This document shows positions 3,093 to 59,797 of a DNA stretch of 64,000 nt, one piece after another. Numbering within the stretch: the stretch's first letter is position 1; every line of letters starts with the position of its first letter. The translations under genes were made by a program, and so were the position numbers. Under the pieces are notes generated by a model that was not told the origin of the DNA, searched no databases, and saw nothing but the letters and a program-made list of their open reading frames with translations. Origin of the DNA: Candidatus Omnitrophota bacterium (lineage in GTDB: Bacteria > Omnitrophota > Gorgyraeia > Gygaellales > Profunditerraquicolaceae); contig JBAZEH010000005.1 of NCBI GenBank assembly GCA_041653955.1, forward strand, positions 178 through 64,177, given 5' to 3'.

Positions 3093-3490
3093 TGGTGGAG
3101 GTGGGCGGAATTGAACCGCCGTCCCCGGACAATCACGTAAAAGCCGCTACATGCTTAGTTTATCTTTTATGCTTACTTCTGCCTGCTCCGGTAAACAGGA
3201 TAAGGCAGACAGCAGCCTTTTTTAATTTCACCCGCGCCCCAAAGGCTAATTTACACGGGCTATCCTGCTATCCGCTCTCGTTTAAGCCACAGGCAGCCTA
3301 AGGAGAGGCTTCGCTAATTTAGTTAGCGAAGACTGGTGCCAGACCCATACCCATTGTGATGGGCATCGGCTGGACGCTGAACAGTTGTCTGTTTGCGTTT
3401 ATCTTGTGCAAGGGTTGTTAACGCGGCTAACCTCGCATCCGCGACATGCTGCTCTTACCCGACTCATCCAGGTCGAGACCTTTCACCCCC
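3093..3490 (-). ncRNA. ssrA: tmRNA (SsrA)
   Basis: The minus-strand RNA starts GGGGGUGAAAGGUCUCGAC and ends with a tRNA-like T-arm and acceptor, GGUUCAAUUCCGCCCACCUCCACCA. The 5'/3' acceptor pairing is intact. It is directly adjacent to smpB. Confidence 0.85.
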
Positions 3491-43700: not shown

Positions 43701-44663
43701 TCAGGATTTATACTCAGAAAGCTGCTTTATGCGCTTAAGCATATTGGGATGGGTACTTAATGCTTCCATAAGCCTGTCTGTAAAACCCAGGCGTATGGTC
43801 TTATTTTTTAATTCCGATAGTTCGGATGGGTCTATGGTGCCGCTGTTATTCAAATCCAGCTGCTTTAACTCCCTGATCTCATTAACTGCCTGAGAAGGGT
43901 CATTAACAAAAAACGCCTTTAATCCCTCCACTTCCTTGAGCGATTCTTTGTTCATGCGGGCTGAACCATAAACAAGCTTATACAGGCTTGAGGCGAGTGC
44001 TGAAGGGTCATTCCCCAAAAGCACGGAACCCCTGTCCGCGAAATATTCCCTTATGCGGGAGGCATACAGCACCAGAAGGTTGGTGATAAAATAGAAGATA
44101 AAAGCAGCCAATCCTACCAGCACGGTATTGCCCCCCCTATCGTCGCGCCTCCTGCCGAAAAAAAGGAAGTGCCAGGCGATACGGTACATGACCATCGGTA
44201 TAACCGATAACAGGGTAATCGTCAGGACATCGCGGTTTTTAAGATGGGATAGCTCATGGCCCAGGACTGCCCGCAGCTCTTCTTCATTCAATAAATTCAG
44301 GATACCCTGCGTAACACAAACCCTCCCATCCCTCCTGCCCCTTCCGAAAGCAAAAGCATTGGGAAGGGCTACATGAGACACGCATACCTTTGGAACAGGG
44401 ATATTGGCGCGCGCGGCCAGATCCTCCACCATCTCATATAAACGCGGGTACTCCTCTCTTTTGACGTATTTAACGCGCATCGTCCATTCTACCAGCTTGG
44501 GCCCCAGCATATATTGGATAAACATGATCACAAAAGACAATATCAGGTAAAAAGAGAATCCTTGTATACGAAAAAATCTGGTGCCTATAAGCACCATAGC
44601 CGTATATATCAATCCAAAAAGCACGGTGAGCAGCAACCACATCCTTATTCTTAAACTCCACAT
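43701..44663 (-). CDS. htpX: Membrane zinc metalloprotease HtpX (M48B)
   Basis: N-terminal TM helices and HELSH (LGHELSHLKNRD). 320 aa. Confidence 0.85.
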   Translation of the reverse strand: MWSLRIRMWLLLTVLFGLIYTAMVLIGTRFFRIQGFSFYLILSFVIMFIQYMLGPKLVEWTMRVKYVKREEYPRLYEMVEDLAARANIPVPKVCVSHVALPNAFAFGRGRRDGRVCVTQGILNLLNEEELRAVLGHELSHLKNRDVLTITLLSVIPMVMYRIAWHFLFFGRRRDDRGGNTVLVGLAAFIFYFITNLLVLYASRIREYFADRGSVLLGNDPSALASSLYKLVYGSARMNKESLKEVEGLKAFFVNDPSQAVNEIRELKQLDLNNSGTIDPSELSELKNKTIRLGFTDRLMEALSTHPNMLKRIKQLSEYKS

Positions 44664-52476: not shown

Positions 52477-53232
52477 TTATCCTCCCAAGCTTACCTTAAA
52501 GATAGTCGCCGCTCCCAACATAATTATCAATATCCCTATATACTTTTTTAACCTGTCCGAATAGATATTCTTTACAGTGAATGCGGCAACCGGAACGGCG
52601 CCGGTTGCAAACAATACCAGTATCCCTGTCAGCTTCCAGTCTATTGCCCTGCCGCTGGCGATATAGGCGAGAAAACCAACTAAACAGGTTATCGCTTCGC
52701 TAAAAGCCGTTATCCCAACTGCATTTTTGGCGTTTACCCCGGAGATCAGCTGACCGCCCATGACCAACGGCCCATACCCTCCTCCGGATATGCCTTTGTT
52801 GAAAGACGCCAGCAGGCTTATGCCGGCTATTTTACGCCATGAGAAACGCATAGGCCTCTTGATCGTCGCCATTATTATAACGCCCATCATCAATACCAGG
52901 GTGCCTATATAAAGCGTAAGCATCCATTTGGGGATCCTTACCGCCACAAATACCGATACGATGACCCCCGCGGCGCTGATCAAACCGAGCAAAGAGGCTA
53001 TCCTGAAATCGGAGGAACGAAAATTAAGATCAACGTTACGCAGGTTATGATGGAATACGCACGCGGCGATATCCGTGAACAGTTGCGAAACCAATATAGC
53101 CGGCACGACCTTTAACGGCTCATGGCCCATGATTATCAGGACAGGCGCCAGGGCAGTGCCATACCCCATGCCGAGGCCGGAGTCAAGATACTCGCTGATA
53201 AAAGTTATTATACCCGTCAATAAAAACAACAT
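52477..53232 (-). CDS. TauE/SafE (TSUP) family sulfite/anion exporter
   Basis: 251 aa, 7-8 TM, with the duplicated 4-TM repeat of the TSUP family. Confidence 0.7.
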   Translation of the reverse strand: MLFLLTGIITFISEYLDSGLGMGYGTALAPVLIIMGHEPLKVVPAILVSQLFTDIAACVFHHNLRNVDLNFRSSDFRIASLLGLISAAGVIVSVFVAVRIPKWMLTLYIGTLVLMMGVIIMATIKRPMRFSWRKIAGISLLASFNKGISGGGYGPLVMGGQLISGVNAKNAVGITAFSEAITCLVGFLAYIASGRAIDWKLTGILVLFATGAVPVAAFTVKNIYSDRLKKYIGILIIMLGAATIFKVSLGG

Positions 53233-54486
53233 TTAAACCTTTATCTCGCCTGCTTTCTTAAGCGCCATCTTAGCAAATACCGGGCCTACGAGTTCATGTA
53301 TTACCGTAGACCCTATCGTTATGCTGATTATAAGATCGGCGATATCCGCGAAGGCAGTTTGCTGTTTTATCATAAGCGCCAATCCTATCACGATCCCGCC
53401 TTGCGGGATAAGGCCCCCTGCGGTGTACCTCCTGACTTTCTTCTCTGCCCCTGAAATGGAGGCGCCTATAAAAGAGCCGGCGGCCTTACCGAGCGCCCTG
53501 AAGATAAAAAAGAATACTACAAGTATGGCGCTCTTAGCCAGTATCCCGAAATTAAGGCTCATCCCGCTTAAGGTAAAGAATAATACGAATATCAATTCCT
53601 CCGGCCTCTCCAATATCATGAATATCTTCTCTCTTTCGGGATTAAAATTCACTACGATCGCCCCCATAGCCATCGTCGCAAGCAGTTCATCTGCCCCAAT
53701 GAGCTGGGCAATACCATAACATAAAAATAAAAGCCCAAGGGTCGCCACAATAAATACCCCTTCGGTCTCTTTCCTTATAAAATAAGACACCTTATTGAAT
53801 ATGGACCCGAAAAGAATGCCTAATCCGACGCCCCCGAAAATGATGGCTGCCGGCTTTAATAATAAGGAATCCACGCTGAATGCCTTATGCAAAATAAGTG
53901 AACCGGCGACCACCACTGCCAGGCTGTAGTTGACTATCCCCAGGACATCATCCAATACCGAAACCCCCATTATCGTTGAGGTAACGTCGCCTTTGGCTTT
54001 ATATTGATGGGTTACCGCGAGCGTCGCGGAAGGGTCAGTCGGAGAAGCCAAGGAAGCTAACAGCAGGCTTATCGGTATGAAAGTAGCGACCCAGGTCGCT
54101 TCTGATATGTGGATAAAAAAAGGAGATATCAGCAGGAAACCCGCCGCAACCGCGATAAAAGCAAGCTCCGCTTCCCAGGCGGTGATATAGAGTATAGTTT
54201 TGCCTAATTTTTTTATACCGGAGAGTAAAAGCGTCCCCCCTACCGAAAAAGTGATGAATGCCAGCGAAATATTCGTGATCAGCCCGGTATGGTTAGGGAA
54301 ATCTTCGGGAATGAAGTGAAAAGAAGCGGGGTTCAAGATGACTCCGGCGATAATATATCCTGTTACCTTAGGGAGCCTGAACTTAACAGCGAGCTCGCCA
54401 AAGATAAATCCCGTTATGATAATAACGCCGACTATAAGGATGGATTGCATAAATAGTATTGTATATAAAAAGGCGCGATGCCGCAA
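53233..54486 (-). CDS. Cation:proton antiporter (CPA family Na+/H+ exchanger)
   Basis: 417 aa, polytopic, with the Na_H_Exchanger fold (GELAVKFRLPKVTGYIIAGVILNP). Confidence 0.7.
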   Translation of the reverse strand: MRHRAFLYTILFMQSILIVGVIIITGFIFGELAVKFRLPKVTGYIIAGVILNPASFHFIPEDFPNHTGLITNISLAFITFSVGGTLLLSGIKKLGKTILYITAWEAELAFIAVAAGFLLISPFFIHISEATWVATFIPISLLLASLASPTDPSATLAVTHQYKAKGDVTSTIMGVSVLDDVLGIVNYSLAVVVAGSLILHKAFSVDSLLLKPAAIIFGGVGLGILFGSIFNKVSYFIRKETEGVFIVATLGLLFLCYGIAQLIGADELLATMAMGAIVVNFNPEREKIFMILERPEELIFVLFFTLSGMSLNFGILAKSAILVVFFFIFRALGKAAGSFIGASISGAEKKVRRYTAGGLIPQGGIVIGLALMIKQQTAFADIADLIISITIGSTVIHELVGPVFAKMALKKAGEIKV

Positions 54487-55221
54487 CTAAATATATTGCA
54501 GCGCCCTTTTGATATCTTCGGATCTGGCTACCCTGACATCTTTCAGCGGGTACTCCAATCCAAGATACTCCCACTTATGCTTTCCGAGGGTATGATATGG
54601 CAGGAATTCAAAATTAGACGCGTGGCGAAAACCGCGGACCAGACTACCTAGCGCTTTTAAGTCCTTTTCTGTATCGTTGAGTCCGGGCGCAAGGACATAA
54701 CGTATCCAATACGGCTTTTTGTTCTCTTCAAGCAAATTAATAAAATCCAACACCTGCTTTAGGTCTCTTGAGGTAATACGCTTGTGCAGATCCTTGTCTA
54801 CCGACTTTATGTCTACAAGAAAAAGATCGGTTAACTCAAGAAGCGAAAACAGTTTATATTCATCCTGTGGGCGGTAAAAGGCGCCCGTGTCTATCGCGGT
54901 ATGCACGCCCCGTTCTTTACAGAGGCAGAATAACTCCTTCAGAAAATCCATTTGCAGCAATGGCTCGCCTCCGGAGACCGTTATGCCTCCTTTTGAGGAA
55001 ATAATATACGGCATGCACTTATCCAGCTTCCTGACAACCTGTTCGGCGCTCATCTGCCTGCCTGCCCTTTCATTCCAGGTGTCGGGGTTATGGCAATACA
55101 AACAGCGCGCCAGGCAGCCCTGCATAAAAAGCACAAACCTTATCCCGGGGCCTTCGTGCGTGCCGAACGTCTCAAAAGAATGGATATTCCCTATAACGGT
55201 TTTACTCTTACATGCTTTCAT
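54487..55221 (-). CDS. pflA: Pyruvate formate-lyase activating enzyme (radical SAM)
   Basis: CxxxCxxC ([14 protein letters not shown]). 244 aa. It overlaps the 3' end of pflB. Confidence 0.85.
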
Positions 55222-57418
55222 GGAATGTCCTTGCCAATACCTCTTTCTGCTGCTCCGTGGATAATTTATTAAAGTGCACCGCGTATCCGGATACCCTGAT
55301 GGTCAGCTGCGGGTATTTATGCGGGTTCTTCATAGCGTCCTCAAGGGTTTCCTTGTCAATCACGTTGACATTAAGATGGTGCGCCCCCTTCATGAAGTAG
55401 CCGTCAAGCAGTGATTTTAAATTTGACCTCCTGCTCTCATGGGTATTCCCCAGCGCTTCGGGGAGCGATGAGAAGGTATTGGATATCCCGTCGCGGCATT
55501 CCGTATAGGGGATAGCGGCCACTGAATTAAGGGACGCGATTATCCCGTTATCATCCCTGCCGTGCATAGGGTTTGCTCCCGGGGCAAAAGGCTCCCCCTT
55601 TTCTCTCCCGTCAGGGGTAGAGCCGGTCTTCTTGCCATACATAACATTTGAGGTAATAGTAAGGATCGATATTGCCGGGAAGGAATTCCTGTAAAGCTTA
55701 TGCTTCTTAAGCTCTGTAAGGAACAGGTTCACCAGGTCAACTGCCCTGCCATCGACCTTATCGTCGTCATTGCCGAATTTAGGAAAATCTCCTTCTATAT
55801 TAAAAGATGTGGTCAGGTTCTTCTTATTCCTTATGGCGCTCACCTTAGCGTAACGTATAGCGCTTAAGGAATCGGCCGCCACCGATAACCCGGCGATACC
55901 AAAAGCCATATAACGGGTAAGCTCGGTATCCAACAGGGCCATCTGGGCTCTTTCATAATAATAGGTGTCGTGAGAGCAATGGATGATATTCAGGGCTTCA
56001 ACATAGGTCTTCACAGTCCATCTTAAAACCTGCATGAACTTCTCTTTCACTTCATTGTGGTCTAAAGGATTTGATTTGATAGGCGCTATATCCGGGACTA
56101 CCTTCTCTCCCGTTATCTCATCGCGGCCTTCATTCAAGGCGTAAAGAAGCGCCTTGGGCAGATTGCAACGCGCCCCGAAATACTGCATCTCGCTCCCATT
56201 TTTAAGCAGGGATACACAGCAGGATATGCTATAGTCATCCCCTCCGATAAGGCGCATCATATCGTCATTTTCGTATTGTATAGAGCTGGTCTTTATAGAA
56301 ACATCCGCGCAAAAACCCTTGAATGGTTCAGGCAGGCGGCTTGACCAAAGCACGGTAAGATTGGGCTCCGGGGCCGGGCCCAGATTAAACAGTGTCTGGA
56401 GGAACCGGTATGAACTTCTGGTCACCTTGTGCCTTCCGTCTATACCTACGCCCCCTATACTTTCAGTGACCCAAACCGGGTCTCCGGCGAATATGTCGGA
56501 GTATGCTTTGGTGCGCAGGTGCCGGACGATCCTGATCTTTATCACAAAATCATCTATCAACTCCTGGGCTGTTTCTTCCGTAATGACCCCGCGCTTCAGG
56601 TCATTCTCAATATATATATCAAAGAAATTGCTCACGCTCCCAAGGCTCATCGCCGCGCCATCCTGTTCTTTTACGGCGGCAAGATAAGCGAGGTATACCC
56701 ATTGTATCGCTTCGCTTGCGTTTTGTGCTGGCCTTGAAAGGTCAAAACCATACATATTCCCCAAAGCAATGATATCTTCAAGGGCAGTGATCTGCTCGGC
56801 GATCTCACCCCTTAATCTTATAGCCTCTTCGGTAGAATAATCTTCAAGGGTCTCCTTGTCATGTTTCTTCGCCGCAATAAGTTTTTTGATACCGTAAAGC
56901 GCGACCCTCCTGAAATCACCTATTATCCTCCCGCGGGAGTAATTATCCGGCAGTCCTGTAATTAAACCGGTATGCCTGGCTTTTAATATATCCGCGGTAT
57001 AGGCATCAAATACGGCATCATTGTGGGTTTTGCGGTATTTGGTATATATCTCTTTTACTCTGGGGCTAAGCTTATAGCCGTAATCTTCACAGGCTGCCTC
57101 TACAAGCCTTATCCCGCCTAAAGGCTTGATAGCCCTCTTTAACGGCTCATCGGTTTGAAGGCCCTTGATCAATTCCAGCTTCTCATCTATATACCCCGGC
57201 TTATGGCTGGTTATGGTAGATACGGTTTCGGTATCTATATCATACACCCCGCCCCTCTTATTCTCCTCTTCAAATAGCTTCAGGCACTTATCCCACAGGG
57301 CTTTGGTCCTGGCTGTAGGCCCCTTTAAGAATGAACTATCACCGTCATAAGGAGTATAGTTCCTGTTGATAAAATCCCTTACGTCTATTGTCTTATCCCA
57401 CCTGCCTCTTTTAAACAT
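55208..57418 (-). CDS. pflB: Pyruvate formate-lyase (glycyl radical enzyme)
   Basis: C-terminal glycyl-radical motif [29 protein letters not shown] and active-site CC (SISCCVS). The start is set at the ATG at 57418 (MFKRGRW), preceded by GGGGGTG. The track ORF extends 24 codons further upstream. Confidence 0.9.
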
Positions 57419-57430
57419 CTTAACACCCCC

Positions 57431-57580
57431 TGCCCAGAAAGGGCGCACCCGGCAATCCAATAAGCCGAGGTGCCTATAAAAAGAAAACACCCGGGTTACA
57501 AAAACCCAGGTGTACGGTTTTCACTTCTTTTTAAGCGCTTCCTCATGGTTTCCCATGTTGACCACCAGTCGCGCTTCACC
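57431..57580 (-). promoter_or_regulatory. Candidate ZTP (pfl-motif) riboswitch in the pflB 5' leader
   Basis: The 5' subdomain is AGCGCGACUGGUGGUCAACAUGGGAAACCAUGAGGAAGCGCU, with P1 GCGC/GCGC enclosing GACUGG and a GGGAAACC hairpin, as in the pfl/ZTP consensus. About 75 nt downstream is a 3' subdomain-like CCGGGUGCGCC ... UGGGCA, directly before the RBS. The linker holds a stable hairpin with a U-run (57476-57512). Confidence 0.45.
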
Positions 57581-57594
57581 AAATTGTCATACTA

Positions 57595-57622
57595 AGTATA
57601 CCACAAAAAAGGCCTGTGTCAA
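57595..57622 (-). promoter_or_regulatory. Sigma70-type promoter for pflBA
   Basis: Minus-strand TTGACA (57617-57622), a 16-nt spacer, then TATACT (57595-57600). This gives a ~175-nt leader. Confidence 0.4.
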
Positions 57623-58413
57623 GCAGGTTTTACAGCCAAAAGGACCTTAAAGCTATTATGCCGCGGCACCGGTTTTACCGCTACCACCCTGAACCCAGCC
57701 CTCCTGCACAACCTCGCCCACCCTTTAAAGCTTACGCAATATTCTCCTTCATTAAGGATATGTTTTACCCCGTTTACAAACATCCTTCTGAATGCCCCGG
57801 TGCCTGCCTCTTTTAACGCAGGCACCCATTCATCTTTTAAAACATCCAGGATACGTAACAGCCTTTTTATATCTGTGTGTTTTCCGGAGGTATCCATATC
57901 CACATCGCCTATGACCAGCCTTCCCCCTGGCTTAAGGAACCTGTAAAATCTCTTAAGCGGTACGGATTTATCCCTGATATGATGCAATGCAACCGTAGAA
58001 ACAATAATATCAAATGCATTATCCCTGAACTTCAGGGAAGAAAAATCTGAAAGCTTACAGCAAACCCTCGCCTCAAGTCCAAGTTTCTTTATCTTCTTCT
58101 TCATAATAGACAGCATCTTCCTTGAGCTGTCAATACCGGTCACCGTGCAATCTGCTTTAGCCAGTAATTTCAGGCTTGAGAGCCCGGTTCCGCATCCGAT
58201 ATCAAGCACCCTGCTGCCGTCTTTGACCCCAGCAAGCCGTGCTGCAAGGTCCAGAATCCCCTTATGAAAGCTTATACTGCCCAATGTCGCGTCATATTCA
58301 TTTGACCATGACCCGAACCATCTCCTGGTTTCCGATCTCTTAGTTTTAACACTGACCTTTCTTTTCATCTTTTCTCCTGATAGGCGGTTTATGTTTTTAT
58401 TATATAGAAACAA
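57619..58413 (-). CDS. Class I SAM-dependent methyltransferase
   Basis: Motif I VLDIGCGTGL and motif post-I/II (GGRLVIGD). The likely start is the internal MKRKVS. Confidence 0.75.
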   Translation of the reverse strand: MFLYNKNINRLSGEKMKRKVSVKTKRSETRRWFGSWSNEYDATLGSISFHKGILDLAARLAGVKDGSRVLDIGCGTGLSSLKLLAKADCTVTGIDSSRKMLSIMKKKIKKLGLEARVCCKLSDFSSLKFRDNAFDIIVSTVALHHIRDKSVPLKRFYRFLKPGGRLVIGDVDMDTSGKHTDIKRLLRILDVLKDEWVPALKEAGTGAFRRMFVNGVKHILNEGEYCVSFKGWARLCRRAGFRVVAVKPVPRHNSFKVLLAVKPA

Positions 58414-59476: not shown

Positions 59477-59797
59477 TGGCTCCCCCTCGAGGACTCGAAC
59501 CTCGGACCTGGTGGTTACAAGCAACCCGGAGTTACTCCCGGACCTGGACTATATCTTTGCCATGGCTTTCGCTTTAGGCAGCAGGTGCATAGTCTCTGAA
59601 CCTTCCCTGATTTCTCAAGGCTCGGCTGCTGATTACCCTCGCCTTTACGTTCGGGCTTCCAGCAATTCTCCTGCTTTTTCAACCGCGATTTCCCGCGGAA
59701 GCTGCCTTTATTCATCCCTCGCGCCCCTGCGCCCGGGACAAACCCCGCGTTCGCGGGATTTGACAGCCACTCGCTCTACCGACTGAGCTAAGGGGGA
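59477..59797 (-). tRNA. tRNA-Asn (GUU) gene interrupted in the anticodon loop (between positions 35 and 36) by a group I intron. Exons are 59763-59797 and 59477-59517.
   Basis: The 5' exon is UCCCCCUUAGCUCAGUCGGUAGAGCGAGUGGCUGU. The 3' exon is UAACCACCAGGUCCGAGGUUCGAGUCCUCGAGGGGGAGCCA. Joined, they give a 76-nt cloverleaf with U1-A72, G73 and anticodon loop CUGUUAA. The 5' exon ends in U, and the intron ends in G. Confidence 0.7.
59518..59762 (-). ncRNA. Group I self-splicing intron (~245 nt, no ORF)
   Basis: The core elements are GUUCAGAGACUA (P7 5' strand), AAGAUAUAGUCC (P7 3' strand), a P9 hairpin CCGGGAGUAACUCCGGG, and a terminal omega-G. A candidate internal guide sequence GGCAGC is complementary to the exon end GCUGU. 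Confidence 0.65.

Follow-up and report, generated by a model that had tools for sequence, protein, structure and literature searches.

The leader of pflB in the 64-kb stretch of DNA analysed here (hereafter the window, whose positions are used throughout) carries, with a probability that we put at about 90%, an ordinary ZMP/ZTP-class riboswitch with a built-in transcription terminator, operating as a transcriptional ON switch. Both strands of the whole window were scanned against all 4227 Rfam families, and three matches above gathering scores were obtained. One of them, to RF01750 (ZMP-ZTP), was found on the minus strand between the pfl promoter and the pflB-pflA operon, which lie on the same strand. 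It spanned the full model (positions 1–86 of 86) with E = 2.4e-4 for the 64-kb window, both strands and 4227 families, and 1.7e-6 for the local 451 bases. Its score of 46.1 bits lies 7 bits above the gathering score of 39; the outer P1 of the model is mismatched, and about six to seven P1 pairs effectively form. A sequence-only reading of this DNA had proposed a ZTP (pfl-motif) riboswitch upstream of a pyruvate formate-lyase gene and had named RF01750 as the family to search. The search was significant and the gene is a real one, its product being a TIGR01255 equivalog (1120.5 bits; cutoff 994.2) that also matches PF02901 and PF01228. A further match, to BSnc120 (57466–57552, 18.5 bits against a gathering score of 114), was discarded as reflecting the terminator hairpin only. 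The features of the locus are collected in Table 1.

Table 1. Positions of the features described in the text, as numbered in the window
Feature	Position	Strand	Evidence or remark
−35 hexamer TTGACA	57617–57622	minus	promoter scan and sequence
−10 hexamer TATACT	57595–57600	minus	16-nt spacer from −35; TG immediately 5'
ZMP/ZTP riboswitch aptamer	57497–57582	minus	RF01750, 46.1 bits; custom model R1, 86.2 bits
P1 5' strand AAGCGC	57571–57576	minus	pairs with GCGCUU at 57538–57533; cmscan alignment
J1/2 GACUGGUG	57563–57570	minus	cmscan alignment
P2 hairpin CAUGG-GAAA-CCAUG, GNRA loop	57544–57557	minus	alignment and covariation
P1 3' strand GCGCUU	57533–57538	minus	alignment and covariation
Linker between subdomains, AAAAAGAAGUG, 11 nt	57522–57532	minus	variable
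3' subdomain AAAACC-GUACACCUG-GGUUUU	57501–57521	minus	cmscan alignment and covariation
Intrinsic terminator hairpin	57487–57513	minus	11 pairs, 6 of them G-C; 5-nt loop UUUGU
Terminator U-rich tract UUUCUUUUUA	57477–57486	minus	TTTCTTTTTA in DNA
42-nt insertion, hairpin GGCACC-UCGGC ... GCCGG-GUGCC, no U tract	57432–57473	minus	leader alignment
Shine-Dalgarno-like GGGGGUG	57424–57430	minus	5 nt ahead of the start codon
pflB, formate C-acetyltransferase, 736 aa	55208–57418	minus	predicted regulated gene
pflA, PFL-activating radical-SAM enzyme	54487–55221	minus	TIGR02493, 291.4 bits against a cutoff of 231.75
Na_H_Exchanger-family protein, 417 aa	53233–54486	minus	
TauE/SafE-family protein, 251 aa	52477–53232	minus	
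Intron-containing tRNA gene	59477–59797	minus	intron at about 59518–59762; missed by default ARAGORN

Anatomy of the aptamer and of the locus

The 5' subdomain runs in the order AAGCGC-GACUGGUG-...-CAUGG GAAA CCAUG-A-GG-AA-GCGCUU, with P1, a GACUGGCG-type J1/2, the P2 hairpin and a GG.AGC return strand. The strings GCGCGACUGG, AUGGGAAACCAU and GGAAGCGCU, in which the sequence-only reading had recognised P1, J1/2 and a P2 GNRA hairpin, align to P1–J1/2–P2 of RF01750 as it had supposed, and all the strings that it quoted are present on the minus strand. Within J1/2, CU (57568–57567) is paired with GG (57542–57541), and GGUG (57566–57563) constitutes the 5' strand of the pseudoknot. The linker differs in length and sequence among homologues, and the linker of the ZTP family is known to be variable (PMC7337938, PMC10085676). 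It is followed by a short P3 stem-loop with a CCG..CGCCUGGG block, in which AAAACC (57521–57516) is paired with GGUUUU (57506–57501) and the loop GUACACCUG contains the 3' strand of the pseudoknot, CACC (57512–57509). The 3' subdomain was placed there by cmscan with posterior probabilities near 1. The expected P3/pseudoknot pairing is thereby present, though at 57521–57501, about 65 nt further 5' than the stretch abutting the ribosome-binding site (RBS) to which it had been assigned.

Family members form the pseudoknot between J1/2, with the consensus GGCG, and the P3 loop, with the consensus CGCC (PMC7337938); in GGUG:CACC of the window, both bases of one pair differ from this and the helix is preserved. 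The conserved core bases GACUGG.G, ACC, GG.AGC and CCG..C.CCUGGG are all retained, and these nucleotides, taken together with the members of the class that have been studied (PMC7337938, PMC7266159), suggest that the window RNA would bind ZMP/ZTP specifically.

The aptamer occupies the 5' leader of a one-carbon/purine-related gene, on the same strand. The near-consensus promoter upstream of it, described beforehand as a good sigma70 promoter of the form TTGACA-16-TATACT, matches 11 of 12 hexamer positions in a promoter scan and is the single site of such quality in 57300–57800, against 0.5 expected in shuffles. Its −10 hexamer ends 177 nt before the pflB ATG (57418–57416), and TTGACA- and TAnAAT-type hexamers occur at the equivalent position in four relatives (L081, L082, L083 and L087). 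Transcription would be expected to start at about 57588, in which case the RNA would begin a few nucleotides before P1. According to the ORF list, the −35 hexamer overlaps the stop codon of an upstream methyltransferase ORF (57619–58413). A small terminator-like hairpin, GCTTGACACAGGC followed by CTTTTTTGTG (57612–57624, minus strand), overlaps both that stop codon and the pfl −35 hexamer and may terminate this class I methyltransferase gene. At the other end of the leader, the Shine-Dalgarno-like GGGGGUG aligns with GGAGGTG of L081 and L082. The start of pflA overlaps the end of pflB by a short distance, and the two genes are presumably co-transcribed. Two membrane-protein genes, of the Na_H_Exchanger and TauE/SafE families, abut pflA on the same strand with zero intergenic gap (52477–54486) and may share the pflB-pflA transcript and its control by the riboswitch; next to pfl, the window shows no gene for a focA-type formate channel.

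An intrinsic terminator overlapping the aptamer

The strong hairpin and U tract pointed out in the sequence-only reading are both there. That reading had set the hairpin between the two halves of the aptamer; its 5' arm is instead the 3' subdomain, and the hairpin is an intrinsic terminator. The 5' arm ACACCUGGGUU (57513–57503) takes in the pseudoknot 3' strand in full, together with four of the six bases on the 3' side of P3; the overlap with the aptamer falls at CACC 57512–57509 and GGUU 57506–57503, and the 3' arm, or invader, is AACCCGGGUGU (57497–57487). The aptamer and terminator folds are mutually exclusive because ACACCUGGGUU has two possible partners, J1/2 with the P3 5' strand on the one hand and AACCCGGGUGU on the other. 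Mutually exclusive folds had been anticipated, and in this respect the earlier proposal stands; the means put forward, a repeated CCGGGUG, does not, since the shared strand is ACACCUGGGUU and CCGGGTG occurs at chance level (seven copies in the window against 5.5 expected, a number reached by 29 of 100 shuffles).

In predicted folds, a transcript ending at 57501 forms P1 and P3, and addition of 57500–57477 causes the terminator to replace P3, the minimum free energy (MFE) passing from −22.3 to −40.1 kcal/mol with z = −3.7 for the longer transcript. The MFE fold of the full leader is the terminator state, and the order promoter, aptamer, overlapping terminator and pfl is the expected one. The RBS (57430–57424) is unpaired in the predicted folds, at a distance of over 50 nt from the terminator, and translational control by RBS sequestration is not favoured; about 70 nt, the inserted hairpin included, separate the terminator from the start codon and leave room for an added control layer. 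ViennaRNA favoured, in its MFE fold, a shifted P2 register, GUGGU/ACCAU (57544–57566, minus strand), which masks the pseudoknot 5' strand GGUG. The consensus P2 (CAUGG/CCAUG) was preferred because covariation supports it, and the alternative register might be passed through during folding or might be just an energy-model artefact.

For two ZTP riboswitches the mechanism has been shown experimentally (PMC10085676, PMC7337938). In the Clostridium beijerinckii pfl riboswitch, the invader first nucleates at the 3' strand of P3 and, if no ligand stands in its way, then proceeds through the pseudoknot by branch migration (PMC10085676). In that of Thermosinus carboxydivorans, the ligand-stabilised pseudoknot acts as an antiterminator, and otherwise P3 nucleotides pair downstream into a rho-independent terminator (PMC7337938). 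ZMP/ZTP serves as a signal that 10-formyl-tetrahydrofolate (10-formyl-THF) is in short supply, and members of the class are associated with genes of folate and purine metabolism (PMC7266159).

By analogy with these systems, transcription in the window would begin a short way past the TTGACA/TATACT promoter, P1, P2 and then P3 would fold in the nascent RNA, and GGUG of J1/2 would join CACC of the P3 loop in an H-type pseudoknot that forms the ligand pocket. At high ZMP/ZTP, that is, under 10-formyl-THF shortage, bound ligand would stabilise the pseudoknot and P3; the emerging AACCCGGGUGU would be unable to displace them from this ligand-locked state, and the polymerase would pass the U tract and transcribe pflB-pflA. 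Without ligand, AACCCGGGUGU would invade P3 and the pseudoknot to build the 11-bp terminator with ACACCUGGGUU, and transcription would stop at UUUCUUUUU. As a rationale for such a response, the formate made by PFL could replenish 10-formyl-THF. Formate from PFL feeds formate-THF ligase, an enzyme that this rationale requires in the host, and this accounts for the association of the class with pfl.

Conservation and covariation

The PFL protein was searched against species-representative genomes and its N-terminal 250 residues against metagenomes, which returned 80 and another 80 loci, respectively. The closest PFLs among the species-representative genomes (78–88% identity) came from metagenome-assembled genomes labelled Candidatus Omnitrophota or Planctomycetia/Planctomycetales. 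The contig of the window was absent at full identity from both scanned collections, in which the best matches reached 88%, and a Logan contig of SRR18595300 (L161) was found to hold a PFL protein and a leader identical to those of the window. Upstream of pfl in the four closest genome relatives (L001–L004), RF01750 scored above threshold, with 40.5–55.7 bits. A strict regular expression for the ZTP core was dropped after finding only four Clostridia-type leaders; the lineage of the window escaped it on account of its GGUG/CACC variant and A-U rich P3.

A custom covariance model, R1, in which the pseudoknot was not included, was built from the leaders of eight relatives. It located the aptamer upstream of pfl in all 12 loci with upstream DNA and a PFL at least 75% identical (L001–L004 and L081–L088), and all 12 carry the terminator too; the leader is thus kept ahead of pflB in relatives, and all the checks that the sequence-only reading had named as able to refute it came out in its favour. 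The model also found the aptamer in eight more distant pfl loci (L073, L075, L076, L077, L079, L098, L116 and L128), bringing the total to 20 of the 160 pfl loci fetched. The absence of the aptamer from the remaining 140 or so in the R1 search fits the known patchy association. Some relatives have additions of their own. L002 (1110–1500) and L085 (810–1200) have an insert of about 390 nt that separates the ZTP terminator from pfl and brings a TTGACA-like site of its own and a small ORF resembling, by eye, a GIY-YIG/UPF0213-type nuclease. Immediately ahead of the pfl RBS, L004 (about 290–356), L088 (about 1130–1201) and L002 (about 1430–1501) share an element made of AATTCGCA, a long hairpin and then GCTCATT(T/A)AAGGAG, which is lacking in the window and in L081–L087 and may be a mobile or repeated leader element.

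Covariation, proposed beforehand as a check on homologous leaders, was assessed over 23 pairs in an alignment of 19 distinct sequences taken from the R1 matches, with 500 shuffles. Standard pairs filled 94.5% of the cells, compared with 28–53% when the 3' partners were slid by one to three columns, and none of the 500 shuffles matched the observed paired fraction, double-change counts or covariation score. Changes on both sides were seen in 14 of the 23 pairs, a count that overstates independence, as close relatives share ancestry and several double changes may reflect few events. P1 pairs covary across the 19 sequences, and two-sided changes were found in three pairs of P2 and four of P3, nested helices that were fitted to R1 and that the model therefore favours. 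The pseudoknot lies outside R1, so its counts are independent of the model. It was paired in 100% of cases, and it covaries as GGCG:CGCC or GGUG:CACC, the third pair being C-G in 14 of the 19 sequences and U-A in five, the window among them. The predicted terminator pairs the pseudoknot 3' strand in 19 of 19 leaders, and in close relatives the invader reads GGUG where the loop is CACC and GGCG where it is CGCC. One strand covarying with two alternative partners is what mutually exclusive aptamer and terminator folds predict.

A lineage-specific insertion ahead of the ribosome-binding site

The distal stretch, CCGGGUGCGCC (57452–57442) ... UGGGCA (57436–57431), lies inside a 42-nt segment that is absent from five aligned relatives (L081, L082, L083, L087 and L003), all of which retain the aptamer and the terminator. 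L081 and L082 are the two nearest, their PFL N-termini being 88% and 86% identical to that of the window. Their leaders match it closely through the terminator, after which ...TTTTTATAG runs straight into the RBS GGAGGTG; in L083, L087 and L003, the terminator likewise runs into the RBS without an insert. Because these five leaders run directly into the RBS, the segment at 57473–57432 was recognised as an insertion carried by the window. It is a real one and not an assembly artefact, since L161, a separate assembly, has the identical leader.

Searched alone, 57405–57496 gave no RF01750 match even at E ≤ 10, and only sub-threshold chance matches to other Rfam families, such as isrB and MIR399; this distal region folds no better than shuffles (z = −1.3). 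No further copies of the inserted hairpin were present in the window within three mismatches. The insert does resemble the terminator (local alignment CACCT-GG.TT.TTG.A..CCGGGTG), with a score of 11 against 6.1 ± 1.3 that 31 of 5000 shuffles reached, both being G+C-rich hairpins and the shuffles having kept base composition only. The likeness, of modest strength, suggests that the insertion may have arisen by tandem duplication of the terminator hairpin, followed by decay and loss of the U tract, and such an origin would explain the double CCGGGUG and the faint resemblance to a 3' subdomain. The insertion is a lineage-specific addition outside the conserved riboswitch, and it probably has no function.

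Weighing of alternative explanations

The sequence-only reading had arranged the parts of the riboswitch differently. It took the distal CCGGGUGCGCC...UGGGCA by the RBS as the 3' subdomain and left the hairpin and U tract inside the linker, so that a long-range pseudoknot formed with ligand would block the terminator or expose the RBS by way of the repeated CCGGGUG. The distal stretch does contain GCC...GGC, its CGCC could form a helix with GGUG if one G-U wobble is allowed, and the length of ZTP linkers is known to vary (PMC7337938), but cmscan puts the 3' subdomain elsewhere, at the proximal site, where CACC complements GGUG by Watson-Crick pairs throughout and covaries with it. Moreover, five bases (CUUUC) split CGCC from UGGGC in the distal version of the otherwise invariant C.CCUGGG block, no family match is obtained from that region, the stretch is missing from five leaders that keep aptamer and terminator, and the CCGGGTG count is that of chance. 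We regard this arrangement as scarcely tenable. It might also be supposed that the motif arose by chance or is decayed, with pfl being constitutive or under protein control only, given that its score is just 7 bits over the gathering threshold. R1 itself produced a chance match of 22 bits at 43775–43822, inside a coding sequence, which draws on ACGCCTGGGTTTT alone and has no Rfam call. Against a chance origin of the motif in the pfl leader, its position, strand and order of parts are all correct, 12 of 12 close relatives keep the aptamer, whose P1, P2, P3 and pseudoknot show compensatory changes, and the invader changes along with the pseudoknot strand, which leaves a chance or decayed motif most improbable.

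A different possibility is that the aptamer is real and the 42-nt hairpin, perhaps a decayed copy of the terminator or the 3' subdomain, modulates expression after read-through by pairing with the freed invader, competing for J1/2, affecting access to the RBS or stabilising the 5' region of the mRNA. The resemblance of the insert to the terminator, its retention of CACC and of a complement to the invader, and its identity in the independent assembly L161 all speak for some role, and unrelated hairpin insertions are found at the same spot in L004, L088 and L002/L085. These last, however, suggest a site that tolerates insertions rather than a function, and the insert is missing from the nearest relatives, shows no excess of folding over shuffles, lacks a U tract and leaves the RBS outside the predicted stems. 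A second layer of control is, on balance, distinctly unlikely. Its more specific form, in which a decayed tandem duplicate of the terminator and 3' subdomain was co-opted as a second element, is very improbable; if true, the duplicate would be an alternative partner for the freed invader (or J1/2) after ligand-dependent read-through and would tune read-through, mRNA stability or pflB translation in this lineage. The preferred reading remains that of a single aptamer with an overlapping terminator.

Relation to known systems

The pfl RNA motif, or ZTP class, takes its name from the gene context seen here and reportedly goes back to Weinberg et al. in 2010 and Kim et al. in 2015. The class, its association with pfl and the terminator mechanism are already established, and the present copy is found by a standard Rfam scan. 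Compared with RF01750 (the pfl RNA motif; reviewed in PMC7266159), the window matches the full model in a one-carbon/purine-related context and shows no family-defining difference, the outer P1 pairs of the model not being formed. The C. beijerinckii switch, which serves as the model system in studies of how ZTP riboswitches fold cotranscriptionally (PMC10085676; bioRxiv 10.1101/521930), likewise has pfl as its regulated gene and consists of P1–J1/2–P2, a linker, and P3 with an H-type pseudoknot, followed by an intrinsic terminator. Its invader displaces P3 and then the pseudoknot in a transcriptional ON switch; the layout of the window matches, and the Clostridia-type leaders L073, L075 and L077 are laid out as in C. 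beijerinckii. By contrast, the third pseudoknot pair of the window is U-A (GGUG:CACC) where the consensus has C-G, its P3 is A-U rich (AAAACC/GGUUUU) where the consensus has a GCC/GGC core, its terminator is short (11 bp with a 5-nt loop; −17.7 kcal/mol against about −28 to −29 in Clostridia-type leaders), an extra 42-nt hairpin precedes the RBS, and the host is uncultivated. With T. carboxydivorans, the window shares the pseudoknot between J1/2 and the P3 loop, and the ligand would be expected to act on it in the same way; sequence and host differ.

No relevant paper emerged from a literature search on Omnitrophota riboswitches. What is new here is confined to three things: the lineage of the host, a naturally occurring U-A pair in the pseudoknot that the invader matches, and a hairpin insertion specific to this lineage. 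The GGUG:CACC variant with its invader is an example of three-way covariation that supports the strand-displacement model, and it introduces no new principle. For annotation, sequence and analogy together suggest that the pflB-pflA operon of an uncultivated bacterium can be labelled as putatively ZMP/ZTP-regulated, a regulation that would, as in Clostridia, tie the production of formate to stress in folate and one-carbon metabolism, and the corrected anatomy turns an apparent second 3' subdomain into a lineage-specific insertion.

Other structured RNAs in the window

The Rfam scan also detected a group I intron at 59525–59750 (RF00028; 61.4 bits, gathering score 50), which interrupts the anticodon loop of a tRNA gene. 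In-silico splicing after ...GGCUGU and ...GCUUG yielded a clean 76-nt tRNA-Asn(GUU), and the intron mode of ARAGORN reported a tRNA-Asp(GUC) with other boundaries; because the two disagree, the splice sites are provisional. Bacterial group I introns occur in tRNA genes for Leu(UAA), fMet, Arg(CCU) and Ile(CAU), and a simple literature search found no case of one in a bacterial tRNA-Asn. A tmRNA gene (RF00023, 169.8 bits) is located at 3093–3490 on the minus strand and has a long predicted tag peptide, ANRQLFSVQPMPITMGMGLAPVFAN.
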